Shown: in pieces, positions 9,070 to 46,992 of the stretch
Layout of the letters: each line of letters begins with the position of its first letter
Numbering within the stretch: position 1 is the first letter of the stretch
DNA from: an uncultured bacterium
GTDB taxonomy: Bacteria; Actinomycetota; Thermoleophilia; Solirubrobacterales; 70-9
Direction: 5' to 3'
Length of the DNA: 64,000 nt
NCBI GenBank assembly: GCA_963734015.1
Contig: CAVTFG010000011.1
Span: 17,842-81,841 of the forward strand
Made by a program: the position numbers and the translations under genes
The notes under the pieces: model-generated
The model's database searches: none
Told to the model about the DNA's origin: nothing
Seen by the model: only the letters and a program-made list of their open reading frames with translations

Positions 9070-10214
9070 CAGCTCACGTCAAAGAAGCCCATCCACCCCA
9101 GCTCGGCGAACTCGGTCTTGTGGGCGTGGAACATGAACGGGCCGGGGTTCGGGAACGTCATCTCGAGGATCCCGCGCTGCGCCTGCCCCTGGATCACCGT
9201 GTCGGTGAACTCGGTGGGCTCGAGCCGCGTGCCGGTCGGGTAGTAGTCGAAGAAGTTCCCGTGGATGTGGAACGAGTTGATCGGGTCGTACTCCAGCGCG
9301 TTCACGAGGTAGATCCGCACCGGCTCGCCGCGGTTGACCTCGATCGGCTCCGCCATGTAGTGGAACGGGATCCCGTTGACGGCGTAGAACTGGTTGCCCT
9401 CGCCGTCGAAGGTGGTGTTGAAGCCGTGCTGCACCATCACCATCTCGTCCGCTTCCGGGCGGCCCTGCTTGGGATCGACGATGAACGTCCCGTACATGCC
9501 GCGCGCGATGTGCTCGGCCAGCGGCGCGACGTGGCAGTGGTAGAGGTGGAGCCCGAACGGCTCCGCGTCGAACTCATACACGGTCGACTTGCCCGGGTTG
9601 ATGATCCCGGCGCCCTGGCCCGGCACCCCGTCCATCGCCGAGGGATGCAGCCCGTGGAAGTGCACCGTGTGCGGGTGGGCGGAGCCGTTCACGAAGCGGA
9701 TCCGCAGCTTGTCGCCCTCGCGACAGCGCAACGATGGCCCGGGAATCCGGCCGTCGTACGTCCAGGCAGGGAACTTGACGCCGGGCGCGATCTCGATCTC
9801 CTTGTCGGCCGCGACGAGGGTCCACTCGCGGAGGATCCGTCCGCTGGCCATGCGCTTCGTCTTGCCGTAGTCGAAGTCGCGCAGGATCTCGGTCGGGTTG
9901 AACCCGTTCCCGTCGTGATCGACGTTCAGCCCCCCGCGGAAGGTTGGGCCGGCGGTGCCGAGCCCGTTCGCGTGCACGGGAACGCCGCCGTGCCCGGTGT
10001 GGCCGGCGGCGGCCGCGACCGCATCGGGATGCTGGTTGCCGCCGAGCGCGTCGTGGAGCCCCTGGTGCGGGACGACCTCGTGCAGCGCCGCCAGGGCGGG
10101 ACCCGCCGCGAGGGCGCCGCCGAGCAGGCGGCGGCGACTCAAGCGGTGCGCGCGCTCGTCGGCGTCGGGCTGTGAGGCCTCGACGATCTCGGCCTCGGGC
10201 TTTCGGCCTTCCAC
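9069..10214 (-). CDS. Tat-secreted two-domain multicopper oxidase (NirK-like cupredoxin pair)
   Basis: Twin-arginine signal (SRRRLLGGALAAG). Copper-ligand blocks HTVHFHGLH, YHCHVAPLAEHIARGMYG and FMFHAHK. Confidence 0.8.
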   Translation of the reverse strand: MEGRKPEAEIVEASQPDADERAHRLSRRRLLGGALAAGPALAALHEVVPHQGLHDALGGNQHPDAVAAAAGHTGHGGVPVHANGLGTAGPTFRGGLNVDHDGNGFNPTEILRDFDYGKTKRMASGRILREWTLVAADKEIEIAPGVKFPAWTYDGRIPGPSLRCREGDKLRIRFVNGSAHPHTVHFHGLHPSAMDGVPGQGAGIINPGKSTVYEFDAEPFGLHLYHCHVAPLAEHIARGMYGTFIVDPKQGRPEADEMVMVQHGFNTTFDGEGNQFYAVNGIPFHYMAEPIEVNRGEPVRIYLVNALEYDPINSFHIHGNFFDYYPTGTRLEPTEFTDTVIQGQAQRGILEMTFPNPGPFMFHAHKTEFAELGWMGFFDVS

Positions 10215-10221
10215 AACAAAG

Positions 10222-10251
10222 ATTTTGACACATCAAAAAGCACGAGGTCAA
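10222..10251 (-). promoter_or_regulatory. Candidate sigma-70-type promoter for the MCO operon, likely giving a leaderless or very short-leader mRNA
   Basis: On the minus strand: TTGACC (10251-10246), a 17-18 nt spacer, TCAAAAT (10228-10222), then GTG at 10214 about 7 nt downstream. Confidence 0.4.
10223..10238. promoter_or_regulatory. Perfect palindrome TTTTGA-CACA-TCAAAA in the only AT-rich patch upstream of the MCO-ZIP-DtxR operon (candidate operator)
   Basis: Read directly: 6-bp inverted arms with a 4-nt spacer, overlapping the putative -10 of the minus-strand promoter. Confidence 0.4.
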
Positions 10252-10253
10252 GC

Positions 10254-11225
10254 GTGCCTAGAATCCGAGTCGTGACGACGGTCGAGCTCGACGGCCAGTA
10301 CCGCGCGCTCCGCGAGGAGGCGGGCATGCTCGAGCGCGGCGAGCGCCGGCTCCTGGCATGCCGGGGCCCGGACGCCGCCACCTACGTGCACGACCAGCTC
10401 ACGAACGACGTCGAGTCGCTCGAGCCGGGCCATGGGTGCTACGCGGCGCTGCTGGACCGCAAGGCGCATATGCAGGCCGACCTGCGCGTGCTGCGGATCG
10501 CCGCAGACGAGCTGCTGCTGGACACAGAACAGGCCGGGCGTGACGCACTCGGCGTGCACCTCGGCACGTACCGCGTCGGCCGTGACGTGGACTTCGAGAA
10601 CCTCGCCGAGGGTCACACGGTTCTTTCGGTGATCGGGCCCGCTGCCGCTTCCGCCACAGGCGTCGGACCCCTTGCGCCGGAGTACGCGCACCGCGAGGTC
10701 GCGATCGGCGGCGCCGGCGCACGCGCCGTGGCAACCGACGTCGGCATCGACCTGATCTGCGCGCGTGAAGACCTGGAGGCGATCGAGGCGACGCTCGAGG
10801 ACGCGGGGGTCGTGAGGGTGGATCCGGCGGCCGCCGAGATCGTGCGCGTCGAGTCCGGCCGGCCGCGGTTCGGCCTCGACATGACCACCGCCACGATTCC
10901 CCAGGAGGCGGGGATCAACGAGCGCGCCGTCAACTTCGACAAGGGCTGCTACATCGGCCAGGAGACCGTCGCGCGGCTCCACTATCGCGGCAAGCCGAAC
11001 CGCCACCTGCGCGGGCTTCGCCTCTCCGGCCAGGTCGAGCCCGGAGCGGTGGTCAGGCTCGGCGACCGAGAACTGGGCACGGTCGGCACCGCGGTCCTCT
11101 CACCCGCCCACGGCCCGATCGCGCTGGCGATCCTGCGCCGTGAGGCGGAGCCCGGTTCGACGGTTGAGATCGACGCGAACGGCGCCACGGTCGAGGCGGG
11201 GGTTGTCGAGCTTCCGTTCGTTTAG
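10254..11225 (+). CDS. ygfZ: Folate-binding YgfZ / glycine-cleavage-T-like Fe-S cluster assembly factor
   Basis: Diagnostic KGCYIGQE motif (FDKGCYIGQETVAR) plus GcvT-like N-terminal region. An alternative GTG start lies at 10272. Confidence 0.8.
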   Translation: MPRIRVVTTVELDGQYRALREEAGMLERGERRLLACRGPDAATYVHDQLTNDVESLEPGHGCYAALLDRKAHMQADLRVLRIAADELLLDTEQAGRDALGVHLGTYRVGRDVDFENLAEGHTVLSVIGPAAASATGVGPLAPEYAHREVAIGGAGARAVATDVGIDLICAREDLEAIEATLEDAGVVRVDPAAAEIVRVESGRPRFGLDMTTATIPQEAGINERAVNFDKGCYIGQETVARLHYRGKPNRHLRGLRLSGQVEPGAVVRLGDRELGTVGTAVLSPAHGPIALAILRREAEPGSTVEIDANGATVEAGVVELPFV

Positions 11226-11239
11226 GGTTTCGCTCGGAG

Positions 11240-11674
11240 ATGTGGTTTCGGGAGGCCGCTGGCCTAACGCGCGGCGTGCGCGCCGGAGTGCTTGGCCTGC
11301 TGGCGGCGGCCGTACTCCTGCTCGGCGCCTGCGGCGAGGACGATTTCCCGAATGACCCGCGCCCGGCGAGCCCGGTCGACCTGACCGCCGCGATCGACGA
11401 TCGCAGCGTCACCGTCTCCCCAGGGGCGCTCGGGGCGGGCCTCGTGACGCTCACGGTCTCGAACCAGACCGGCGAGCCCGCCCGCCTGGCGCTCGAGGGT
11501 CCCACGTTCGCCTCCACCAACGAGATCCCGCCGGGAGGGACCGGCACGATCAAGACCACCCTGGAGGAGGGCGACTACGAGGCGACCGCGGGTACCGAGG
11601 TCAACATCCGGCCCGGTCGGATCACCGTCGGGCCCGAGCGCCCGAGCTCGCAGAACGAGCTGTTACAGCCGTAG
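11240..11674 (+). CDS. Small lipoprotein, Ig/cupredoxin-like beta protein of unknown function
   Basis: Signal peptide with lipobox LLLGAC followed by a beta-rich mature region. Confidence 0.6.
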   Translation: MWFREAAGLTRGVRAGVLGLLAAAVLLLGACGEDDFPNDPRPASPVDLTAAIDDRSVTVSPGALGAGLVTLTVSNQTGEPARLALEGPTFASTNEIPPGGTGTIKTTLEEGDYEATAGTEVNIRPGRITVGPERPSSQNELLQP

Positions 11675-12949
11675 CTATCCCGAGGCGGAGTCGTCCGCCT
11701 CGGCCACGAGGGCGTCGATGCGGTCCAGCTTCTCCTGGAGCGACGCGATCATCGCGTCGAGGCCGGCCCGGGCCTTGTCCGAGCTGGTCTTGATGCCCGT
11801 GAGCATCGAGCGAATGGCCTGCGCCTGCTTGAGCAGCGTGATCGCCTCGGCGGTGATGTCGCGCACGGCCACCGCGTCGACGTCGAGCTCGCGGTCGCGC
11901 GCCATCAGGACTCGCGCCGCGGCGAGCCGATAGGCGACCTCGAGCACCAGCGAGTCGGGCTCCTCGCGGTCGACCGCCACGATCAGCTTGTTGCCCTCGT
12001 ACTCGGTGAGCTGCTCGCGGCCGGACGGAACGCGGTCCTCGCCGGCCACGACCAGCACGCCGAACGATGCGGCCCGTGCGGTCATGCCGCCATTCAGCTC
12101 GTTCCAGGCGGCGTGCTTCGAAAGCTTCTTGTCCTTTGCCTCGAACACGATCCGGCCCGTGGACGGCCCCTCGCCGGCGCCGAGCTCGATCAGCGTGTCG
12201 CCCTTCTTGCCGCCGCCTTCGGCGCCCTCGGTACCTGTGTGCGACGCGCAGTCACCGCGGCTGGACGCGATCCGCTCGACCGCCTTGTGTACGCGCTCCT
12301 CGAAGGTGAAGCCCTTGGCGGTGCCGCGCTCGGCCTCGGTGGCCACCCGCTCATCGGCGTCCTCGCGCTCGCGAAGCTCGATCACCTGGCGCTGGAGCGC
12401 CTCGATGCGCTTGCGGTTCGCCTCGCCCTCGTTCTGCTGGCGCTCGTCGAGCGCCTTGAGGCCGCGGACGACGGCTGCCTTGAAGTCCGTGAGCGGGTTC
12501 GCCCCGTCCTCGGCCGAGAACAGCTGGGCGATCTTCGTCCGCTGCTCCTCCAGCGCCTCGGACAGCATGGCGTCGATCTCCTTCTGCACGGATCCGTCGC
12601 GAGTACCGTCGAAGGTCTCGGCGATCCGCTCGGCAAGCTGCTGATCGCCGGTCTCGAGCGCCTTCGAGAGCCGCTCGCGCAGAGCTCCTGCGTGGCGCTC
12701 GAACTCGGCCCGGACGTAGTCGACGTTGACGGCCGTCTCCTCGGTGTCGAGAACCCGGGCGCCGATCTCGATGGCCTTCGTGATCGTGACGCCCGGCGGC
12801 TGGCCGGCCTCGGCCCGTTCACGAACGACGCGCGCGGCGCGCTCGTCGGTGAGCTCGAGCCGCTCGATCACGAGCCGGTCGCCGATCGCGCGGACCGCAC
12901 CCTGATCGATGCCGTCGAGTGGTAGTTGTGGCTTCTCCGAGGCTTCCAT
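11675..12949 (-). CDS. Coiled-coil protein with C-terminal PD-(D/E)xK nuclease-like core (DUF2130/RmuC-like architecture)
   Basis: Long Glu/Arg/Ala-rich helical N-terminal half, then KKGDTLIEL...GRIVFEAKDKKLSKHAAW (a D...ExK motif laid out as in DUF2130). Confidence 0.55.
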   Translation of the reverse strand: MEASEKPQLPLDGIDQGAVRAIGDRLVIERLELTDERAARVVRERAEAGQPPGVTITKAIEIGARVLDTEETAVNVDYVRAEFERHAGALRERLSKALETGDQQLAERIAETFDGTRDGSVQKEIDAMLSEALEEQRTKIAQLFSAEDGANPLTDFKAAVVRGLKALDERQQNEGEANRKRIEALQRQVIELREREDADERVATEAERGTAKGFTFEERVHKAVERIASSRGDCASHTGTEGAEGGGKKGDTLIELGAGEGPSTGRIVFEAKDKKLSKHAAWNELNGGMTARAASFGVLVVAGEDRVPSGREQLTEYEGNKLIVAVDREEPDSLVLEVAYRLAAARVLMARDRELDVDAVAVRDITAEAITLLKQAQAIRSMLTGIKTSSDKARAGLDAMIASLQEKLDRIDALVAEADDSASG

Positions 12950-18125: not shown

Positions 18126-20127
18126 ATGGCCGAGCACCGCCTGCCCGACCCGGACCGCCCCTGGGTCATGCGCACGTACGCGGGCCATTCGGACGCCCGC
18201 CGGTCGAACGAGCTCTACCGCCGCAACCTCGCGAAGGGCCAGACGGGCCTGTCCGTCGCCTTCGACCTGCCCACCCAGACCGGGTACGACCCCGACGCCG
18301 TGCTGGCGCGTGGCGAGGTCGGCAAGGTCGGCGTCTCGATCGCGCACAAGGGCGACATGCACGCCCTGTTCGACGGCATCCCGCTGGGCGAGATGAACAC
18401 GTCGATGACGATCAACGCAACCGCGGCCTGGCTGCTGGGCCTCTACTGCGCGGTCGCCGAGGAGAACGGAGTCGAGCTGTCGGCGCTCAAGGGGACCACC
18501 CAGAACGACATCATCAAGGAGTACCTCTCGCGCGGCACCTACGCCTTCCCGCCCGGCCCGTCGATGCGCCTGATCGCGGACACCGTCGCGTTCTCCGTCA
18601 ACGAGATCCCGAGCTGGAACCCGACCAACGTCTGCAGCTACCACCTCCAGGAGGCCGGGGCCACGCCCGTCCAGGAGATCGCGTACGCGCTCTCGACCGC
18701 GATCGCAGTGCTCGACGAGGTGCGCTCGCGCGGCCAGGTGGCCGAGGAGGACTTCCCGAAGGTCTTCGGCCGGATCTCGTTCTTCGTCAACGCCGGTGTC
18801 CGGTTCATCGAGGAGCACGCGAAGCTGCGCGCGATGTCCGAGCTCTGGGAGGAGATCGGGCGCGACCGCTACGGCGTCACGGACGAGAAGTACCTGCGGC
18901 TGCGCTACGGCGTGCAGGTCAACTCGCTCGGCCTGACCGAGTCGCAGCCGGAGAACAACGTCCCGCGGATCGTGCTCGAGGCCCTTGCGGTGACGCTCGG
19001 CCGCGACGCCCGCGCCCGGGCGATCCAGCTGCCCGCCTGGAACGAGGCCCTCGGCCTGCCCCGGCCGTGGGACCAGCAGTGGAGCCTCCGCATCCAGCAG
19101 ATCCTCGCCTTCGAGACCGACCTCCTGGAGTACCCGGACATCTTCGAGGGCTCGAAGGTCATGGACGGGCTCGTCGCCGAGCTGGTGGACGGCGCCCGGG
19201 CCGAAATGGCGGTGGTCGAGGAGCAGGGTGGCGCGGTCGAGGCGGTGCCCTACATGAAGGCCCGCCTGGTCGAGTCGCACCGCGAGCGGATCGCCCGGAT
19301 CGAGCGGGGCGAGATCAAGGTGATCGGCCAGAACTCGTTCACGGAGTCCGAGGACTCGCCGCTCACCGCGGACGCGGACGGCGGCATCCTCACGCCCGAT
19401 CCGGAGGTCGAGCGCGAGTGCCGCGACGCCCTCGAGAAACTGGCGCGCGGAGCGGGATTCGGACGCCGTCGAGAAGGCGCTCGCCGACCTGCGCGAGGCC
19501 GCCGCCGACGAGCAGCGGAACATCATGCCCGCCACGATCGCGGCGGCCAAGGCGGGCGTGACGACCGGCGAGTGGGCGCAGGCCCTGCGCGATGCGTTCG
19601 GCGACTACCGCGGGCCGACCGGAGTCGGCGCGTCGTCGTCCGGAGCGTCCGAGGAGCTGCTCGCCGGAATTCGCGCGCGGGTGGACGAGGTCTCCGACGC
19701 GCTCGGGCACCGGATCCGCATCCTGGTCGGCAAGCCCGGCCTCGACGGGCACTCCAACGGCGCCGAGCAGATCGCGGTGCGTGCGCGAGACGTGGGCATG
19801 GAGGTGATCTACCAGGGGATCCGCCTCACGCCCGAGCAGATCGCGGCGTCGGCGGCCGACGAGGACGTGGACGTCGTCGGGCTCTCGATCCTGTCCGGCT
19901 CACACCTGGAGCTGATCCCGGACACGGTCCGGATGCTGCGCGAGCGCGACGTCGACGCGCCGGTCGTGATCGGCGGCATCATCCCCGCCGGCCACGAGCA
20001 GAAACTGCTCGACGCCGGCGTGGCCCGCGTCTACACGCCGAAGGACTTCGAGATCAACCGGATCATGGGCGAGATCGTGGAGCTGATCGCCCAGCGGGCC
20101 GGCGCCGAGGCGAAGGCTCCCGCCTGA
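18126..20127 (+). pseudogene. ecm: Ethylmalonyl-CoA mutase (MeaA/Ecm-type fused B12 mutase) interrupted by a +1 frameshift near 19440
   Basis: N-terminus RPWVMRTYAGHS...GQTGLSVAFDLPTQTGYD...NTSMTINATA...VCSYHLQEAGATPVQE. After ...RDALEK (19437-19439) homology continues one base downstream as WRAERDSDAVEKALADLREAAADEQRNIMPATIAAAKAGVTTGEW, followed by the B12-binding domain (GKPGLDGHSNG). The frame-0 continuation is Arg-rich nonsense. Confidence 0.85.
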
Positions 20128-20140
20128 CCGGCGTGTACCG

Positions 20141-20737
20141 GTGAGCCCCCGGCCGATCGAGTTTCCAGTCGAGGGCTTGACGGACGGCGTCATCCGCGTC
20201 CGCCTGCCGGCCGATGCCGACGCGCCGCGGATCGTCGAGGCGTGCCGTGATCCCGACGTGGGGCGCTACACGACGGTCCCCACCCCCTACCAGCCCTCGC
20301 ACACCGTGGAGTGGATGCACCGCGGCCTCGCCGGACTGGCCGCGGGGACCGACGTGCAGACCGTGATCGCCGAGGCCGACGGCTCCGACGTGCTGGGGAC
20401 GATGAGCCTCCACGAGATCAACCGGCCGGCGAGCCGCTGCGTCGCGGGTTACCTGGTCGGCCCCTGGGCCCGCGGACGCGGGGTTGCGGGGCGGGCGCTT
20501 CATCTGCTGTGCGGCTTCGCGTTCGACGAGCTGCGACTCGCGCGGGTCGAGGTGACGATCGAGCCGGGCAATACCCCGTCGCGCGCGACGGCCGAATCGG
20601 TGGGCTTTCGCGAGGAAGGGCTGCTGCGGTCCTACATGGCGATCGCCGGGGCCCGCAGGGACATGCTGATGTACTCGCTGCTCCCCGGTGATCTGCGCCG
20701 TGCACCCGGGACCGAGGACGCTACGCTCGGAGGGTGA
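20141..20737 (+). CDS. GNAT-family N-acetyltransferase (RimJ/RimL-like)
   Basis: Acetyl-CoA-binding block GRGVAGRAL and a 198-aa GNAT layout. Confidence 0.8.
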   Translation: MSPRPIEFPVEGLTDGVIRVRLPADADAPRIVEACRDPDVGRYTTVPTPYQPSHTVEWMHRGLAGLAAGTDVQTVIAEADGSDVLGTMSLHEINRPASRCVAGYLVGPWARGRGVAGRALHLLCGFAFDELRLARVEVTIEPGNTPSRATAESVGFREEGLLRSYMAIAGARRDMLMYSLLPGDLRRAPGTEDATLGG

Positions 20738-21312
20738 ACGAGGAGCAGGAGCACCTCGATGCCGACCGTGGTGCCTGGCTTCGCTGCTACCGCTGCTGGT
20801 CGCAGCGCCTCGAGGCCCAGGTCCACTACGACGCGATCCTTCGCGTCGACCCGGAAACCGGCGAGGCCGCCGAGCGCGTCGAGGAGGTCCAGGAGGCCGT
20901 CGTTCAGTGCCTCGACTGCATGCACGACCAGCCGCACCTGACGGTCGAGGAGGGCCGCGTCGTGGCGGTCGGCGACCGCTGGGAGCGGATGGTGGCGGGC
21001 AAGCCGTTCGTGGCCTCGTGCACGGTGACCGTCGACCAGGACATGGTCGAGTCGTGCTCCGGCCCGGAGGCCGCCGACAGCCTCACCTACGCCTCGTTCG
21101 GCGACGCCGGAACCCGCGAGTTCTTCACCCACGTGCGCTTCCACAAGCACGACGAGGAGCGCATCATCTCCCACCTCCTGGTCGAGCTCTACGCCCGCAC
21201 CGAGGAGGAGGCCATCGAGGTCCTCGAGGGCGCGGCACGCGGCGCGCTCGAGGTCACCTCACTCGCCGAGGAGTCGCGGCCGCCCGCGCACTCCCACGGC
21301 GAGGCGCACTGA
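20734..21312 (+). CDS. Hypothetical acidic protein with CxxC...CxxC pair, translationally coupled to the GNAT gene (GTGA)
   Basis: 192-aa ORF with CYRC at residues ~18-21 and CLDC ~40 residues later. No family recognised. Confidence 0.5.
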   Translation: MNEEQEHLDADRGAWLRCYRCWSQRLEAQVHYDAILRVDPETGEAAERVEEVQEAVVQCLDCMHDQPHLTVEEGRVVAVGDRWERMVAGKPFVASCTVTVDQDMVESCSGPEAADSLTYASFGDAGTREFFTHVRFHKHDEERIISHLLVELYARTEEEAIEVLEGAARGALEVTSLAEESRPPAHSHGEAH

Positions 21313-21327
21313 GCCCAGGTCGAACCG

Positions 21328-21675
21328 ATGGCCGCCCGACGCATCATGCCCTACCACGAGTCGCCGGACTTCGAGGCCACGCGCAGCTTCTACACGCGGG
21401 TGCTCGGGCTCGAGGAGGGGAACTTCGGCGGCGGTTACATCGGCTTCGGATCCGGCCAGGCGCAGGTCGTCTTCGCCCCGCCAGGCGTGGAGCCCGTGCT
21501 GCCCGACATGGGCGTGGACGTCGGTTCGCGGGGAGCCGTCGATGCGGCGCATGCTGAGGCGGTCCAAGCCGGGCACGAGGTCATCTACGGTCCGGTTGAC
21601 GAGCCGTGGGGTGTCCGCCGCTTCTTCGTTCGCGATCCGCACGGTGTCGTGATCAGCGTGCTGGCCCACGAATAG
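21328..21675 (+). CDS. VOC-family (glyoxalase/bleomycin-resistance fold) protein
   Basis: 115 aa with FYTRVLGL...EPWGVRRFFVRDPHGVVISV, typical of a single VOC domain. Confidence 0.8.
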   Translation: MAARRIMPYHESPDFEATRSFYTRVLGLEEGNFGGGYIGFGSGQAQVVFAPPGVEPVLPDMGVDVGSRGAVDAAHAEAVQAGHEVIYGPVDEPWGVRRFFVRDPHGVVISVLAHE

Positions 21676-21783
21676 TCGAAGCTCGGCGTGATCAGCCGTG
21701 CGAGTCCGCAGCCGCGAGGCTCGGCAGGTCGACCACGAGCCGCGACAGCCGCTCGCCCCTCAGGTCGACGGCCTCGCGGATGC

Positions 21784-22167
21784 TTCTTCGCCACCTTCCC
21801 GCAGCTCGAGGGGATCCGCTTCAGCCACCGGTGGGGCGGCGCGATCGACACCTGCAGCCGGTTCTTCGCGTTCACCGGAACCTCGCACGGCGGGCGGGTC
21901 GCATACACGGTCGGCCATACCGGCCTGGGCGTCTGCGCGAGCCGGTTCGGCGCCGGCCTGGCCCTCGACGTCCTCCACGGAACGGCGAGCGAGGCCGCCG
22001 GACTGCACAGCATGAGAAGCAGGCCCATGCCCTTCCCGCCCGAGCCGCTTCGCTGGGCGGCGATCCAGCTGACCCGTAGCCGCCTCGCCGCAGCCGACCG
22101 CAAGCGGGGCGAGCGCGGTTGGTGGTTGCGCGCGCTCGACCGGGCCGGGCTGGGCTTCAACAGCTGA
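21784..22167 (+). pseudogene. C-terminal remnant (~125 aa) of an FAD-dependent oxidoreductase (DAO/PuuB-like)
   Basis: FPQLEGIRFSHRWGGAIDTCSRFFAFTGTSHGGRVAYTVGHTGLGV...PFPPEPLRWAAIQLT...LDRAGLGFNS matches the C-terminal third of ~460-aa enzymes. The FAD-binding N-terminus is absent, and upstream in-frame sequence is Arg-rich junk. Confidence 0.7.
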
Positions 22168-22225
22168 GAAACACTGCCTTACCGGGCGGGCGAACATGCT
22201 TTCGCGACTTGCGTCGCTCACTTGA
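22157..22225 (-). repeat. Third, inverted and start-less copy of the conserved small-ORF element (..SSERRKSRKHVRPPGKAVFLSC*)
   Basis: About 85% nucleotide identity to copy B over ~48 nt (GTGAGCGACGCAAG.CGCGA.AGCATGTT.GCCC.CC.GG.AAG). The ATG GGT is replaced by TCA AGT. Confidence 0.6.
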
Positions 22226-22237
22226 TCTAATGTCGGC

Positions 22238-23233
22238 ATGGCGATCGGGGCGTTCATCGGCACCGGGCGCAACCTCGAGCGCGCGCTCGACCGGGTCCGG
22301 CGCGCGGAGGAGCTGGGCTACGAATCGGCCTACGTCACGCACATCGCCGCGCGCGACTCGCTCACGGTCCTCACCCGCTACGCGTCCGTTACCGAGCGCA
22401 TCCGGCTCGGCACGGGCGTCCTCCCCATCTTTTCGCGCACGCCCGCGTCGGCGGCTCAGACCGCCGCCACCATCGACGAGATCTCGAACGGGCGGATGGT
22501 TCTGGGGATCGGCGTGTCGCACCGGGTCACGGTCGAGCATTGGTTCGACGCCGAGATCACGAAGCCGGTCACTCAGATGCGCGAATACGCCGGGATCGTC
22601 CGGGCGATCCTGAACGGCGAGGAACCCCCTGCCGGAGAGTTCTTCAACTCCAGGTTCGCGTTCATGGGCTATCCGCCCCGTCCGGAGCTGCCGATCTATA
22701 TCGCCGCCCTGTCCCCGAACATGCTGCGCCTGGCCGGCGAGATCGCGGACGGCGTGATGCTCTGGCTCTGCAACCCCCAGTACATCCGCGAGACGGTGAT
22801 CCCCGAGGTCAGGAGCGGCCGTGAGCGGGCCGGCAAGACGCTCGAGGGGTTCGACGTCGTCGCCGCGGTCCCGGTCGGCGTCACGGACGACCCCGACGCA
22901 GCACGCGCCGCGTTCCGCGAGGACCTGATCCCGTACGCGTCGCTGCCGTTCTATCGCGCGATGCTCGAGCGCTCCGGCTTTGGCGCCGACCTCGCGGCTT
23001 TCGACGAGGGGATGGCCGGGGGAGACCCCGACCAGGCGATGGCGGGCCTCTCCGACGAGCTGCTCGCCTCGCTCGCGGGGCTCGGCGACGGCGACGCCGC
23101 CCGCGCCAAGGTCGTCGAGTACCAGGAGGCGGGCACGACCTCGCCCTGCATCGGCGGCATCCCGAGCGCCGGCTTCGATGCGGCGCTCGAGGCTGTGGCC
23201 GAGATCACAGAAGGATCTCCGGCACAGGCGTAG
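22238..23233 (+). CDS. LLM-class (luciferase-like) flavin/F420-dependent oxidoreductase
   Basis: TIM-barrel LLM pattern (ELGYESAYVTH..., GRMVLGIGVSH, PIYIAALSPNMLRLAGEIADG). Confidence 0.85.
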   Translation: MAIGAFIGTGRNLERALDRVRRAEELGYESAYVTHIAARDSLTVLTRYASVTERIRLGTGVLPIFSRTPASAAQTAATIDEISNGRMVLGIGVSHRVTVEHWFDAEITKPVTQMREYAGIVRAILNGEEPPAGEFFNSRFAFMGYPPRPELPIYIAALSPNMLRLAGEIADGVMLWLCNPQYIRETVIPEVRSGRERAGKTLEGFDVVAAVPVGVTDDPDAARAAFREDLIPYASLPFYRAMLERSGFGADLAAFDEGMAGGDPDQAMAGLSDELLASLAGLGDGDAARAKVVEYQEAGTTSPCIGGIPSAGFDAALEAVAEITEGSPAQA

Positions 23234-42427: not shown

Positions 42428-42820
42428 TCAGCCCTCCTCGCTCCAGAAGTCCTGGACCATCTCGGCGTCGCCCTCGTGGCGCGGGCTGAACACCAGGTAT
42501 TCGAGTCCCTCCGGGCCGGCCTCGAAGATCCGCGTCACGTCCGGGCCGACGCGGATCACGTCGTTTGCCCGGACCTCGAGGATCTCGTCGTCGAGCTTCA
42601 TCCGGCCGGCCCCGGAAAGGATCACGTGCACCTCTTCGGCCTGGCCGTGCTTGTGCGCGAACGGCTGGCGCTGGTCCGGCTTCACCCGCAGGTGTCCCAT
42701 GCCGCTCTGCGCGAGGCCGATCTCCTCCCTTGGGAACCGCGCCTCCTGCAGCTCTCCGATGCCGTGCTTCGCCGCGGAATCCGCCACGTCCTCCAGGTTC
42801 ACCTTGGCGTAGTCGCCCAT
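42428..42820 (-). CDS. Cupin-domain protein
   Basis: 130 aa with cupin motifs HKHGQAEEVHVILSG ... and a strong SD (AGGAGGA). Confidence 0.8.
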   Translation of the reverse strand: MGDYAKVNLEDVADSAAKHGIGELQEARFPREEIGLAQSGMGHLRVKPDQRQPFAHKHGQAEEVHVILSGAGRMKLDDEILEVRANDVIRVGPDVTRIFEAGPEGLEYLVFSPRHEGDAEMVQDFWSEEG

Positions 42821-42837: not shown

Positions 42838-44937
42838 CTAGAACAGTTTCGCCTGTCCGGCGGAAGCGCGCGGTTGCGATCGCGTGACGCGGCGCCCCGT
42901 GGCCGACGCGGCCGCGTTCGTTCGGTCGACCGGAGCGCTGGGCCGCAGGAATCGCCGCGGCGGGTTCTTCCCGCGCGCCAGCTTCGCGAGGCGGTCCCGC
43001 TCGGCGACCGGCAGGTACGAGCCCCGGCCGTAGAGGCGCTCGTAGCGGTCGAGCAGGTCCGGGCGGTATTGGCGCAGCCAGTCCATGAACAGTCCCTTTA
43101 CCTCGCCGCGCAGGTGCAAACCGATCCCGCCGACGCTCTTCGCTCCCATCTCGCCCGCCACCTCGAGGATGCGCTCGACCTGGCGTGGGTCGTCGTTGAT
43201 CCCCGGCATCAGCGGCGCGACCAGCACCCCGGTCGGGATCCCGGCTCGGTTCAGCTCGCCGACGGCGGCCAGCCGGGTCTTCGGATGCGGCGTGTGCGGC
43301 TCGCTCGCACGCCAGGCTTTCTCCTCGAGCGTCGGCACCGACAGGTTCGCGACGAACTCCGTCCGCGCGGCGATCTGCTTGAAGAGCGGCAGGTCGCGCA
43401 GCAGCAGCGGCGACTTGCTGAGAACCGAGCACGGGTTCGAGAAGTCGCGCATCGCCTCCCAGATGCCGGGCATGAGCTTGTACTTCGACTCGACCCACTG
43501 GTACGGGTCCGTGTTGGTGCCGAGCGCCACGTGGTCGCCCCGCCAGGACCTCTTGCCGAGCTCCGCTCGCACGAGCTCGGGCGCGTTCACCTTGACGACG
43601 ATCTCGCGCTCGAAGTCCTCGGCGGCGTTCAGGTCGAGGTACGTGTGCGTGGGACGGGCGAAGCAGTTGTGACTCACGACTCCGTTGGCGATGAAGTCGC
43701 CGGTCCCGGTCGTGATGTCGTAGAGCGCGTGAGTTTGCAACGGCTCGATCTCGGCTACGTCGAGCCGAGAGTTCGACTTGAGCGCATACCCCAAGATCGA
43801 TCGCTTGCGGACGATGGCCGGATCCGTCACGTGAAAGAACCGGAGCCTTTCCGCGAGCCCACCGCGCAGTCGGACGGTGTGAAGGTTATTGGGACGCCTG
43901 TGATCCTCCAGCACGTGCTCGAAGCCGAGTCGCCGGAAGCAGTCCTGCGTCCACCCGAGAATCTCGTTGTCGGTGTTCGAGATTCTCACGGCGGAACCGT
44001 TAGAGCCTTCCGCATCAAAAACTCCGGCGAGAAACCCCTTGATCCAGTCTTCGGTGGGCTTCATCGGCCAAGCGATCAGGGCTCGGATGGCGTCCACCCG
44101 ACCCCGCGCGGAGGTCCTGATCGCCGAAATCCGACTAGAGCCGGTGGTCGGGTCGGCTTGCTGAAAGACGAACTCGTCGGTCTCGATTCCTTCGGCGGAG
44201 AGAAAGGAGCCGGCGCGCTCCAGCCCGTCACGATCCTTGAGCGCCAACCGGAAGCGGTGGACATCGCCGTTCCGTCGTTCGGGTCTGACGTAGTTGTACG
44301 ACCCTAGGTGGCCGTCTCCGCGAACCATTCCGCAGAGATAGCCGCGTCGGTAATCAGTCGAGTGCGGGGGCGATGCCGAGAACGAGCCCACGCCGAGCAA
44401 CTTGTCGTTCATGGTCAGATGCGGACGCCGCGCGGCACCGCACTGCGTGCCCGTGACGTACTTCCATCCCCGCCGAGTGAGGAAACGATGGTCGCCGCTA
44501 GCGACCAGCTGAGTTCCATCCTCCAGCGTGATGCGGAATGCCGGCTTCGCCGTCTGCCAATGGTTCAGCACCGTCGTGGCGACATACCGTCGATATGTAC
44601 CGACGCGCTCTGTGCCGTAGATCCGGTCCCCTGGTTGGAGCTCAGCCAGCTGTCGATGGGTTCCGTCGGCCATCAGGATCGGCGTCCCACCCTCCATGCA
44701 ATAAACGCAGGCATGAGTGCAGCCCCGATACGGGTTGATCGTCCAGCGGAACGGCATCCGCGAACGCTCCGGGACCCCGTTGATCGCCGAGCGCGCCTGC
44801 ACCTCGTGGAACCGGATGCCAAGCGCCTCGGGCGCATCGAACGTGCGGGTCACCGGCTCACCCAGTCCGGGGAGCAGGCCTTGCGTGCCGGCTCCTGTCT
44901 CGAGGTTGTCCCAACGCACGAACGTATGTTCGCACAT
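42838..44937 (-). CDS. Rv2578c/SplB-like radical SAM protein (COG1533 type) interrupted by an intein
   Basis: The exteins join to ...INPYRGCTHACVY|CFARPTHTYLDL..., the family's CxxxCxxC core. The C-extein carries family-typical blocks (TNTDPYQ, SVLSKSPL, PLMPGINDD). Confidence 0.88.
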   Translation of the reverse strand: MCEHTFVRWDNLETGAGTQGLLPGLGEPVTRTFDAPEALGIRFHEVQARSAINGVPERSRMPFRWTINPYRGCTHACVYCMEGGTPILMADGTHRQLAELQPGDRIYGTERVGTYRRYVATTVLNHWQTAKPAFRITLEDGTQLVASGDHRFLTRRGWKYVTGTQCGAARRPHLTMNDKLLGVGSFSASPPHSTDYRRGYLCGMVRGDGHLGSYNYVRPERRNGDVHRFRLALKDRDGLERAGSFLSAEGIETDEFVFQQADPTTGSSRISAIRTSARGRVDAIRALIAWPMKPTEDWIKGFLAGVFDAEGSNGSAVRISNTDNEILGWTQDCFRRLGFEHVLEDHRRPNNLHTVRLRGGLAERLRFFHVTDPAIVRKRSILGYALKSNSRLDVAEIEPLQTHALYDITTGTGDFIANGVVSHNCFARPTHTYLDLNAAEDFEREIVVKVNAPELVRAELGKRSWRGDHVALGTNTDPYQWVESKYKLMPGIWEAMRDFSNPCSVLSKSPLLLRDLPLFKQIAARTEFVANLSVPTLEEKAWRASEPHTPHPKTRLAAVGELNRAGIPTGVLVAPLMPGINDDPRQVERILEVAGEMGAKSVGGIGLHLRGEVKGLFMDWLRQYRPDLLDRYERLYGRGSYLPVAERDRLAKLARGKNPPRRFLRPSAPVDRTNAAASATGRRVTRSQPRASAGQAKLF
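43666..44700 (-). mobile_element. Full-size intein (345 aa) with LAGLIDADG homing-endonuclease domain
   Basis: Cys1 (CMEGGTPILMADG, block A), block B-like SGDHRFLT, two LAGLIDADG motifs (YLCGMVRGDGHL; FLAGVFDAEGS), C-terminal ANGVVSHN followed by +1 Cys. By eye the GC is lower and more codons end in A/T than in the exteins. Confidence 0.9.
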
Positions 44938-44968: not shown

Positions 44969-44993
44969 GGTAGCTAGCTAAGTAGTTGCTACC
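44969..44993. promoter_or_regulatory. Inverted repeat GGTAGC-N13-GCTACC (contains TAGCTAGCTA and GTAGTTGCT), candidate MarR operator
   Basis: Read directly in the 65-nt divergent region between the radical SAM gene and marR. Confidence 0.45.
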
Positions 44994-45002
44994 CTCGGCT
45001 GC

Positions 45003-45464
45003 GTGACCGCCGCCACCCGCAGCACCGCCCCGGCCGACCTCGAGGCTTTCCGCGAGGCGTGGGACGAGTTCTTCGGGGCGGTTCGCCGAGCGCGCGGCCG
45101 CGCGGCGCGTGAGAGCGCCCCGGGCTCCCTGACCCTGGCGCAGTTCCAGCTTCTGGCGGCGTTCGCCGACGCGCGCGAGCTGAGCGTCGGCGAGCTTGCG
45201 CTGGCCGGCGGCGTCGCGCCCCCCACCGCGACCCGCATGCTCACCGGACTCGAACGCGACGGGATCGTCGAGCGCCGGCCGTCCGAGGTGGACCGGCGGA
45301 GCGTGCGCGTCCGCCTGACGCCGAACGGCCGTCGCGTGTTGCGCGCGAAGCGCAAGCTGGTGGCCGCCAAGCAGCGGGCGATCTTCGAGACCCTGACCAC
45401 CACCGAGCGACGCCAGTCCGAGTCGATCCTCCGCCGCCTGGCCGTGGCGATGGAGGAGTTGTGA
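45003..45464 (+). CDS. MarR-family transcriptional regulator
   Basis: wHTH region LTLAQFQLLAAFADARELSVGELALAGGVAPPTATRMLTGLERDGIVERRPSEVDRRSVRVRLT. Confidence 0.9.
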   Translation: MTAATRSTAPADLEAFREAWDEFFGAVRRARGRAARESAPGSLTLAQFQLLAAFADARELSVGELALAGGVAPPTATRMLTGLERDGIVERRPSEVDRRSVRVRLTPNGRRVLRAKRKLVAAKQRAIFETLTTTERRQSESILRRLAVAMEEL

Positions 45465-45523
45465 TGGGTGAGCGACGCAAGGCGCGACAGCATGTTTGCC
45501 CCCCTGGCAAGAAATGTCCATGA
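45464..45523 (+). CDS. Conserved 19-codon small ORF, copy B (MGERRKARQHVCPPGKKCP), overlapping both neighbours
   Basis: Its ATG shares one base with the marR TGA (TGATG), and its TGA overlaps the MFS ATG (ATGA). SD GGAGGAG lies 5 nt upstream. Paralogous to 13033-13092. Confidence 0.55.
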   Translation: MGERRKARQHVCPPGKKCP

Positions 45524-46992
45524 ATCCACACCTGAACCCCGGTCGTCAGCACTACGGCCTGACCCTCGCCGTCCTGCTGATCGCCGCCCTCGCCTTCGCC
45601 CTGCAACAGACGATGGTCGCCCCCGCCCTGCCGGCGATCCAGGAGGAGCTGGATACCTCCACCACGGCGGTGACCTTCGTACTCACCGGTTTCCTTTTGA
45701 CCGCCTCGGTCTCCACTCCCATCATGGGCCGTCTCGGCGACATGTTCGGCAAGGAGCGGATGCTCGTGATCGCGCTCCTGATCTTCGGACTGGGCTCGCT
45801 GGTCTGCGCGCTCTCGCACTCGATCGAGGTCCTGATCGCGGGCCGCGGGATCCAGGGCATTGCCGCGGCGGTGTTCCCCCTGGCCTTCGGGATCATCCGC
45901 GACGAGTTCCCGCCCGAGCGCGTGGCGACGGGCATCGGCCTGATCAGCGCCACGTTCGGCATCGGCGGCGGCGCCGGCCTCGTCCTGAGCGGGTTGATCG
46001 TCGACCACCTGGCCTACGAGTGGATCTTCTGGCTCGGTCTGGTGTTCATCGCCGTCGCGATCGTGGCCACGTTCCTCTGGGTGCCGGAGTCGCCCGTGAA
46101 GAGTCCGGCCAAGATCGACTGGGGCGGCGCCGCTCTGCTGTCGGGAACGCTGGTCTCGCTCCTGGTCGGCGTCAGCGAGGCGAACTCGTGGGGCTGGGGC
46201 TCGCCCGAGATCCTGGGGCTGTTCGCCACCTCGGCGATTCTCTTCATGACGTGGGTCAGGTACGAGCGGCACCAACCCGAGCCGTTGGTGGACATCGCGA
46301 TGATGCGCGAGCGCGCCGTGCTGACCACAAACCTGACGGCGTTGATGGTTGGCTTCGGGATGTTCGGGTCGTTCATCCTGATCCCACAGCTCGTGCAGCT
46401 GCCCGAGTCCACCGGCTTCGGCTTCGGCGCCACGGTGACGCAGGCAGGCCTGTTCATGGCTCCCTCGGCGGCGATCATGCTCGTCGCGGGGCCGCTGGCG
46501 GGCTGGCTGGGCAGCCGTTTCGGCTCCCGCCTCCCGCTGCTGATCGGCACCGCGCTGACCGCGGTCAGCTTCGCGATCCTCGCCCTGGCCCACGAGGACC
46601 GCGCTTGGATCTATGTCTCGAGCGGCATCCTCGGCCTCGGCATCGGCTTCGCGTTCGCGTCGATGGCCAACCTCGTCGTGGAGGCGGTCCACCCGAGCCG
46701 CACCGGCGTCGCCACCGGGATCAACACGATCATGCGCACGATCGGCGGCTCGCTCGGCGGCCAGATCGCGGCGACGATCGTGGCTTCCACCGTGCTCGCC
46801 TCAACCGGCCTGCCGGAGGAGTCCGGGTTCGAGCTCGCGTTCGCGCTGTCGGGCGTGGGGATGGTCGGCGCGTTCGTGGCCGCGCTGGCGATCCCGCGGG
46901 ATCTGCCCTACTCCCCCACGCGCGTGGCGCGGGAGACGGTCGCGGCGACCACGCCCCTGGCCGGCCCCAGCGCCTCTGGCGGGAGCCAGTGA
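45520..46992 (+). CDS. MFS transporter, DHA2 (14-TMS, EmrB/QacA-like) drug:H+ antiporter family
   Basis: 14 hydrophobic segments, motif A-like GRLGDMFGKERM and motif C-like region. The track ORF begins at 45496; ATG 45520 is preferred because of the small-ORF coupling. Confidence 0.88.
   Translation: MNPHLNPGRQHYGLTLAVLLIAALAFALQQTMVAPALPAIQEELDTSTTAVTFVLTGFLLTASVSTPIMGRLGDMFGKERMLVIALLIFGLGSLVCALSHSIEVLIAGRGIQGIAAAVFPLAFGIIRDEFPPERVATGIGLISATFGIGGGAGLVLSGLIVDHLAYEWIFWLGLVFIAVAIVATFLWVPESPVKSPAKIDWGGAALLSGTLVSLLVGVSEANSWGWGSPEILGLFATSAILFMTWVRYERHQPEPLVDIAMMRERAVLTTNLTALMVGFGMFGSFILIPQLVQLPESTGFGFGATVTQAGLFMAPSAAIMLVAGPLAGWLGSRFGSRLPLLIGTALTAVSFAILALAHEDRAWIYVSSGILGLGIGFAFASMANLVVEAVHPSRTGVATGINTIMRTIGGSLGGQIAATIVASTVLASTGLPEESGFELAFALSGVGMVGAFVAALAIPRDLPYSPTRVARETVAATTPLAGPSASGGSQ

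Follow-up and report, generated by a model that had tools for sequence, protein, structure and literature searches.

A LAGLIDADG intein within the iron-sulfur cluster motif of an Rv2578c-like radical SAM gene from a Solirubrobacterales bacterium

The window analyzed here is a stretch of 64,000 nucleotides (nt) from a Solirubrobacterales (Thermoleophilia) bacterium, and its coordinates are used throughout. On its reverse strand lies a gene for an Rv2578c-like radical SAM protein, which is interrupted by an intein of 345 amino acids (aa) between the second and third cysteines of the CxxxCxxC motif that ligates the iron-sulfur (Fe-S) cluster. The features of the locus, including the open reading frame (ORF) as called mechanically and the likely true coding sequence (CDS), are as follows.

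42838..44937, reverse strand: mechanical ORF, the intein-containing Rv2578c-like (COG1533, "SplB-like DNA repair photolyase") radical SAM precursor; 699 aa, with a match to NF038136.
42838-44919, reverse strand: likely true CDS, with a GTG start.
44919..44932, unstranded: LexA (SOS) box CGAACATACGTTCG, a perfect CGAAC-N4-GTTCG that overlaps the GTG start.
44701..44919, reverse strand: N-extein, ending ...YRGCTHACVY and holding Cys-7 and Cys-3, the first and second cluster-ligating cysteines.
43666..44700, reverse strand: class 1 intein (Cys1 ... His-Asn, then Cys+1); 345 aa, corresponding to ORF aa 80-424.
44476..44700, reverse strand: N-terminal Hint lobe (intein aa 1-75), with Cys1 in block A and S68-G-D-H71 in block B; TIGR01445.
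44410..44475, reverse strand: conserved low-confidence segment RGWKYVTGTQCGAARRPHLTMN (intein aa 76-97), between the Hint lobe and the endonuclease.
43801..44358, reverse strand: LAGLIDADG homing-endonuclease domain (intein aa ~115-300; PF14528), with motif 1 YLCGMVRGDG (D129) and motif 2 FLAGVFDAEG (E231).
43666..43758, reverse strand: C-terminal Hint lobe (intein aa ~315-345), with block F LYDITTGTGDF (D328) and block G ANGVVSHN; TIGR01443.
42838..43665, reverse strand: C-extein, stop codon included, which begins with Cys+1 and holds the remaining radical SAM barrel.

The intein string CMEGGTP...GVVSHN, opening with CMEGGTPILMADG, maps exactly and in frame to 43666..44700. With a slash marking each splice point, its junctions read ...NPYRGCTHACVY / C1 ... 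H344-N345 / CFARPTHTYLD. Translated from the GTG, the precursor is probably 693 aa long and has the intein at aa 74-418. A first-pass annotation, made from the letters alone, had placed the insert between the second and third Cys of CxxxCxxC, and the flanks CTHACVY/C...HN/CFARPTH bear this out. It was also right that Cys+1 doubles as the splice-junction nucleophile and the third radical-SAM cysteine, and that Cys1 of the intein recreates the CTHACVYC spacing in the unspliced precursor. The in silico deletion of aa 80-424 restores CTHACVYC. As it had further stated, the intein is lower in GC than the exteins (0.627 vs. 0.691 overall; 0.765 vs. 0.896 at third codon positions, GC3). No second intein copy was found within the 64-kb window.

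To compare the gene with its relatives, one genome per species was scanned with the spliced extein, and the 80 best loci were kept. These were mostly metagenome-assembled genomes labelled Solirubrobacterales, Solirubrobacteraceae, Thermoleophilaceae, or Conexibacter, and the remaining loci were labelled broadly ("uncultured bacterium", Actinomycetes, and Actinomycetota). All 80 loci lack the intein, and the 55 recognised by the junction pattern read uninterrupted ...C.YCFARPTH.... Two intein-less relatives are especially close. L001 has 90% aa identity and keeps synteny for 9 kb, and L084 has 97% aa identity in its protein, P0271, and 96.8% nt identity downstream. The alignment to intein-less relatives, which had been proposed as a check, confirmed the exact extein junctions: blastn of both loci against the window stops at 44698 and resumes at 43665, and the 3-nt breakpoint ambiguity corresponds to a TGC codon on either side. 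The empty-site junction reads ...CATGCCTGCGTTTAT/TGCTTCGCCCGTCCC..., and that of L084 reads ...ACCCATGCCTGTGTCTAT/TGCTTCGCACGTCCCACG.... At the protein level, P0271 and P0272 are both 97% identical to the spliced extein and both lack the intein. The best 120 protein matches to the spliced extein have no intein either, and those longer than 300 aa span 313-419 aa. Moreover, the spliced extein matches NF038135 as one uninterrupted stretch (8-307 vs. 2-305 of 317). The share of intein-bearing proteins is biased by the query, being 120/120 matches with the full query and 0/120 with the spliced one.

These data bear on whether the 345 aa might be a family-wide accessory domain, the outcome that the first-pass annotation had named as fatal to its proposal, or an assembly artefact. 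The sole point for an accessory domain is that thousands of homologues carry the 345-aa insert, whereas the 80 best loci and the best 120 protein matches to the spliced extein are without it, and comparison with the empty alleles of similar synteny, L001 and L084, places the junction at single-codon resolution. An artefact is contradicted by the same architecture on independent long contigs (L081, 144 kb). The probability of either is practically negligible, and the segment is treated below as an insertion.

The Pfam matches in the ORF were Intein_splicing, LAGLIDADG_3 (PF14528, 26.4 bits vs. a cut-off of 22.5), and Radical_SAM (PF04055, 30.7 bits vs. a cut-off of 29.5). Comparison with intein hidden Markov models, suggested beforehand as a way to classify the element, gave scores over the cut-offs for TIGR01445 intein_Nterm (25.1 bits vs. 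24.5) and TIGR01443 intein_Cterm (18.6 bits vs. 15.6), with NF038136 as the best NCBIfam match. The matches to the family models are far above the chance level. In an alignment of 44 homologues, C1, S68 and H71 (block B), D328 (block F), H344, N345, and E231 were invariant, as was much of both LAGLIDADG motifs, and Cys+1 and D129 were nearly invariant (at least 90%). C1 was found in all 120 best homologues. A phmmer search of the intein against PDB sequences matched only the conserved block B of the DnaB and gp41-1 mini-inteins; in the solved DnaB mini-intein, SGDHRF aligns to the block B TxxH (TGNH), and the C-terminus aligns to block G. Cys1, the terminal Asn, and Cys+1 are the features of a class 1 intein.

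An AlphaFold2 model of the intein, built from the 44-homologue alignment, had a mean pLDDT of 88 and a pTM of 0.86. In this model, beta-rich N- and C-terminal lobes flank an alpha/beta middle domain, and the endonuclease domain has a pLDDT of at least 79, mostly 95-98. A Foldseek search against the PDB placed the TliVMA intein, PI-PfuI, and PI-SceI at the top (E ~1e-13 to 1e-11), and the middle domain matched I-DmoI (TMt ~0.75, rmsd ~3.5 Å). The modelled middle domain has the pseudo-dimeric alpha-beta-beta-alpha-beta-beta-alpha LAGLIDADG fold. Like TliVMA, PI-PfuI, and PI-SceI, the intein has a Hint splicing domain split by a two-motif LAGLIDADG endonuclease, to which I-DmoI corresponds. However, it shares just 12-19% sequence identity with these four proteins, and PI-SceI (454 aa) has large extra DNA-recognition domains that are not in this 345-aa intein. 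Residues 75-97 of the intein were modelled with a pLDDT of <50. In the segment RGWKYVTGTQCGAARRPHLTMN, R77, W79, V82, G88, R92, H94, L95, and T96 are invariant, and RRPHLT is nearly invariant; it may be a linker or flexible element, or a DNA-contacting region of the endonuclease. The canonical features noticed in the letters (Cys1, the block B-like SGDHRF, two LAGLIDADG motifs, and the terminal HN followed by Cys) were thus borne out, and the structural reading of the first-pass annotation agreed with the data wherever it was checked.

The precursor matched NF038136, "intein-containing Rv2578c family radical SAM protein", with 670.5 bits and an E-value of 2.4e-201 over model positions 1-562 of 574. 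The NCBI gives this family name to the 64%-identical protein P0115, and the JGI calls homologues "DNA repair photolyase". At this same site, each of the 120 best homologous proteins (62-78% identity) has an intein of 339-351 aa. In the survey by Novikova et al. (2016), 48 SplB/COG1533 inteins were counted, all in Actinobacteria, and SplB/COG1533 was one of the top bacterial intein hosts (PMC4760082). The first-pass annotation had left undecided whether the insertion site was already catalogued; it is, by NF038136 and by the survey. The survey passages covered here state, for the SplB intein, no placement inside an Fe-S motif (PMC4760082). The host family and the insertion point are the same as in the NF038136 and actinobacterial SplB inteins, the intein mapping to model positions 76-334, directly after CxxxCxY. 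The two inteins are homologous, and the intein alone matches the model with an E-value of 1e-73. The present copy differs in that its 345 aa align to just 259 model positions and in that its source belongs to the Thermoleophilia/Solirubrobacterales branch. Since insertions at this site are already known and common in Actinobacteria, the locus is a clear-cut instance of an established kind of element and does not represent a new one.

A second intein-bearing allele was found in L081 (ENA ERZ25039494 contig_15878, 10001-12076), which is syntenic with window positions 42838-44937. The nt identity between the two is 93-100% in the exteins and the 10-kb flanks and 43-73% exactly within 43666-44700. 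In the L081 protein (P0002), the exteins are 99% identical and the intein, of 343 aa, is 57% identical. Across 120 homologues, the extein and intein identities to the query were uncorrelated (r = -0.23). Among exteins at least 96% identical, three allelic states occur: this intein, the 57%-identical intein, and the empty site. The presence of one intein, another intein, and no intein in essentially one host gene is what would be expected of a homing cycle in which sites are invaded, emptied, and invaded again, and it points to a cycle that is active or to an element that was recently mobile. The exteins of the window and L081 differ at 35 positions, 9 of which fall within -28..+15 nt of the junction as against an expected 1.5, and a similar excess of junction-proximal differences was observed between the window and L084. 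The peptide around the junction is identical in the window and L081, so these junction-proximal changes are synonymous. The GC3 is ~0.77 in both intein alleles vs. 0.90-0.91 in their exteins.

The locus is best explained, at a probability that we put at roughly 0.9, by a selfish class 1 intein of canonical type with a monomeric two-motif, I-DmoI-like LAGLIDADG endonuclease, which would splice out with restoration of the cluster motif and spread by homing into the CVY/CFA codons. This explanation draws on the observed anatomy, exact junction, empty alleles, allele turnover, and conservation of catalytic residues. The splicing and DNA-cleavage activities are predicted from the sequence. The intein would have invaded an Rv2578c-like radical SAM gene under LexA control at its most conserved codons, and the precursor (~693 aa) would carry a split cluster motif, with Cys-7 and Cys-3 on the N-extein and the third Cys as the +1 residue of the C-extein. 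Cys1 would undergo an N-S acyl shift, Cys+1 would attack by trans-thioesterification, and Asn345, aided by His344, would cyclise to release the intein. An S-N shift would then form a native peptide bond and recreate CTHACVYC, able to ligate a [4Fe-4S] cluster. The endonuclease of the freed intein would cut intein-less alleles at the CVY/CFA codons, and repair from the intein-bearing copy would copy in the intein plus a few flanking bases. The junction-clustered synonymous differences are consistent with such co-conversion. The intein would survive because the host cannot alter or imprecisely delete that site.

Several observations weigh against this explanation. Block B has Ser instead of the consensus Thr (S68-x-x-H71), a conservative change at a residue that is invariant in the family. 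The NF038136 score of 670.5 bits is 30 bits short of the curated cut-off of 700, which leaves the protein outside the family as curated. For the spliced extein, NF038135 (the Rv2578c equivalog) is the closest family, ahead of PA0069 (248 bits), and the score of 376.9 bits is likewise below the cut-off of 430. By these scores, the host is a diverged branch, "Rv2578c-like" and not a strict equivalog. The intervals used for the clustering of differences at the junction were picked after inspection of the data, so the clustering amounts to a mere hint of co-conversion tracts. Finally, no splicing or DNA-cleavage experiment on this allele or on any intein of its family was found.

A degenerate intein, which has lost its endonuclease or its splicing and passes on by vertical descent only, or a dead pseudogene would be another way to read the same anatomy. 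Many bacterial inteins have inactive endonucleases, and the score under the NCBIfam cut-off and the low-confidence modelling of residues 75-97 would suit such decay. Nevertheless, the ORF is intact, and 44-120 homologues retain all the splicing residues along with the acidic residue of each LAGLIDADG motif. The exteins, 99% identical to those of P0002 and with a GC3 of 0.90, indicate a host gene under selection, which requires splicing, and recent mobility within the clade is needed to explain how one intein allele replaced the other in otherwise near-identical genomes. We consider degeneration very unlikely and retain the explanation of a functional, mobile class 1 intein.

The host gene itself appears to be under SOS control. 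The mechanical ORF opens with ATG TGC GAA CAT ACG TTC GTG, and CGAACATACGTTCG overlaps its codons 2-7. The CGAAC-N4-GTTCG box has a single match in the window, and a LexA box stands at the gene start in 78 of the 80 orthologous loci, followed in some by ATG and not GTG. Since the box is kept at the gene start with either codon after it, it behaves as a DNA element, and the first six mechanical codons would be non-coding, which makes the GTG at 44919-44917 the probable true start. The gene is thus a predicted member of the SOS regulon. The conserved box fits the LexA ChIP-seq peak at M. tuberculosis Rv2578c (PMC3381160), as well as the finding that mitomycin C induces a "DNA repair photolyase" in a RecA-dependent manner (PMC8151990). 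The Rv2578c-like family is only distantly similar to SplB (bioRxiv 10.1101/2025.02.27.640095), and phmmer against PDB sequences found no solved relative of the host extein.

A cupin gene of 130 aa (~42428-42820, reverse strand) starts 18 nt downstream of the radical SAM gene. In the mechanical ORF list, it appears as the tail of a spurious 356-aa ORF. L082 and L084 repeat this arrangement, with the downstream gene labelled Cupin_2, and the radical SAM and cupin genes probably form a conserved operon of two genes. On its upstream side, the radical SAM gene directly adjoins the divergent genes for a MarR regulator (45003-45464, forward strand) and an MFS transporter (45496-46992, forward strand). 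This MarR/MFS cassette (~44977-46907) is present in L081 and missing from L084, positions 1-59 of which equal window positions 46966-46908 at 100% identity before the alignment jumps to 44976; the corresponding interval in L001 is shorter. The cassette is an indel polymorphism adjoining the intein locus.

The placement of the intein also raises the question of redox- or Fe-S-conditional splicing, a possibility that the first-pass annotation had put forward. The junction C-V-Y-/C1 puts an extein Cys at position -3 of Cys1, here and in 120 of 120 homologues. In a conditional switch, the precursor would bring together Cys-7, Cys-3, Cys1, and Cys+1, and the first splicing step would be blocked either by a Cys-3/Cys1 (CxxC) disulfide, formed on oxidation, or by Zn, Fe, or an Fe-S cluster bound to the four cysteines. 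It is plausible that, with such a switch, the oxygen-labile, SOS-induced radical SAM enzyme would mature only in a reducing cell. The occurrence of Cys-3 and Cys1 in all 120 homologues would favor it, but this geometry is automatic for a Cys1 intein that homes before the third Cys of CxxxCxxC and is by itself no sign of selection for regulation. The conserved LexA box adds some support, as the product would be made under stress, when the redox state changes. On the other side, the sporadic distribution (97%-identical empty alleles and a 57%-identical replacement), the conserved endonuclease motifs, and the GC3 offset are the pattern of a selfish element, and the sporadic distribution indicates that the host does well without the intein.

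Two known systems are relevant to this alternative. MoaA is a radical SAM enzyme that also has a C-terminal CxxC...C motif, which would likewise yield a Cys-3. In P. abyssi, splicing of the intein in this oxygen-labile enzyme is under the control of a native Cys-3/Cys1 disulfide, which blocks the reaction until it is reduced (Callahan et al. 2011, Nat Struct Mol Biol 18:630, as described in PMC3922620 and PMC10663303), a precedent that speaks for the switch. The arrangement here is the same, with Cys1 and a native extein Cys-3 in an oxygen-labile enzyme. The P. abyssi intein differs in its archaeal hyperthermophile host and its enzyme family, and redox control has been demonstrated there, whereas here the arrangement is known from sequence. 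The M. tuberculosis SufB (Pps1) intein is reportedly sensitive to oxidative and nitrosative stress. It resembles the present one in being actinobacterial and in having a host protein of iron-sulfur metabolism; it differs in that SufB is a cluster-assembly scaffold and the intein does not lie between cluster-ligating CxxxCxxC cysteines. Earlier work on it has dealt with splicing kinetics and with conserved residues of the extein (PMC8891592). Overall, splicing that is measurably sensitive to redox state or metals seems possible, though doubtful, at the present locus, and a gating that is adaptive, with the intein kept partly for the benefit of the host, seems more doubtful still. The position between cluster-ligating cysteines, together with Cys-3, makes the intein a good candidate for tests of redox or metal effects on splicing in a mesophilic bacterium.

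Searched by itself with phmmer against 1.84 billion representative proteins, the intein had 2,208 matches at E ≤1e-3, 301 of them at ≤1e-30. Among the listed matches with both junctions inside the protein, script parsing found the arrangement CxxxCxx/intein/C in 35 of 47. In one (P0180), the intein precedes the second Cys; of the other 11, about five have the same junction and escaped the script through parsing errors, and the remainder appear to be truncated or frameshifted. The exteins belong to more than one family. Besides COG1533 relatives (Rv2578c, PA0069-like, and "mobile pair B"-like), there are DUF5131/"mobile pair A"-like proteins, of which one carries a fused ParB N-terminal domain, and B12-binding class B members of the radical SAM group (BchE/HpnJ-like). 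A further extein is a small radical SAM protein whose SPASM/MoaA-like matches are weak. The proteins behind this cross-family set include P0150, P0153, P0165, P0180, P0181, P0187, P0202, and P0209. The inteins in other radical SAM families are 35-48% identical to the query over all 345 residues, the endonuclease included (E 1e-50 to 1e-77). Inteins at sites outside radical SAM proteins were barely detectable, with a DnaB intein at an E-value of 2e-3 and a phage-borne intein at 26% identity. Homologous inteins at the same CxxxCxx/C position across families make the cluster motif a motif-level hot spot for one intein clade.

A search for phage relatives by tblastn among 50,697 phage records yielded one weak match (26% identity), which was set aside as irrelevant; it has no CxxxCxxC at the insertion point. 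The matching record, L083 (KX853510.1, CDS 19211-22480), encodes a 1,090-aa protein named "radical SAM protein-like protein" with a LAGLIDADG intein at ~aa 404-754. By eye, its host sequence is helicase/ATPase-like, and the product name in the record looks wrong.

In the open-access text searched, no description of an intein hot spot at the radical SAM cluster motif was found, nor was any of the present insertion site in the papers matched on inteins together with radical SAM, CxxxCxxC, MoaA, or Fe-S; those that had seemed relevant dealt with RNR or terminase inteins or with intein tags. The closest parallel is that inteins of DnaB, MCM, and clamp loaders cluster in the P-loop, a motif shared by non-orthologous proteins, according to the survey (PMC4760082). 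Both cases show clustering in one highly conserved cofactor-binding motif of non-orthologous proteins; the motif is a nucleotide-binding loop there and an Fe-S cluster motif here. For the clamp-loader inteins, independent acquisition was argued in the survey (PMC4760082), whereas the radical SAM inteins compared here are homologous over their whole length. A stronger proposal is that one clade has specialised on CxxxCxx/C as a cross-family homing site (COG1533/Rv2578c, PA0069-like, DUF5131/"mobile pair A", and B12-binding class B), with the Cys-7/Cys-3/Cys1/Cys+1 tetrad as a redox or Fe-S gate. The cross-family distribution that it includes is observed; as a whole, the proposal is unlikely.

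As an individual finding, this intein matters little: SplB/COG1533 inteins have already been surveyed, and a dedicated NCBI model exists. In annotation, the gene should be treated as encoding a single SOS-regulated radical SAM protein and not a "LAGLIDADG endonuclease", with its true start probably just past the LexA box. The locus is a tidy natural experimental system, in which three allelic states in nearly identical genomes offer a ready donor, recipient, and target for homing assays. At the level of the clade, the picture of inteins clustering in cofactor-binding motifs is extended from P-loops to Fe-S motifs. If the proposal of a specialised, gated clade were true, oxygen-labile radical SAM enzymes, here an SOS-induced putative DNA-repair enzyme, would mature only under reducing, iron-replete conditions.

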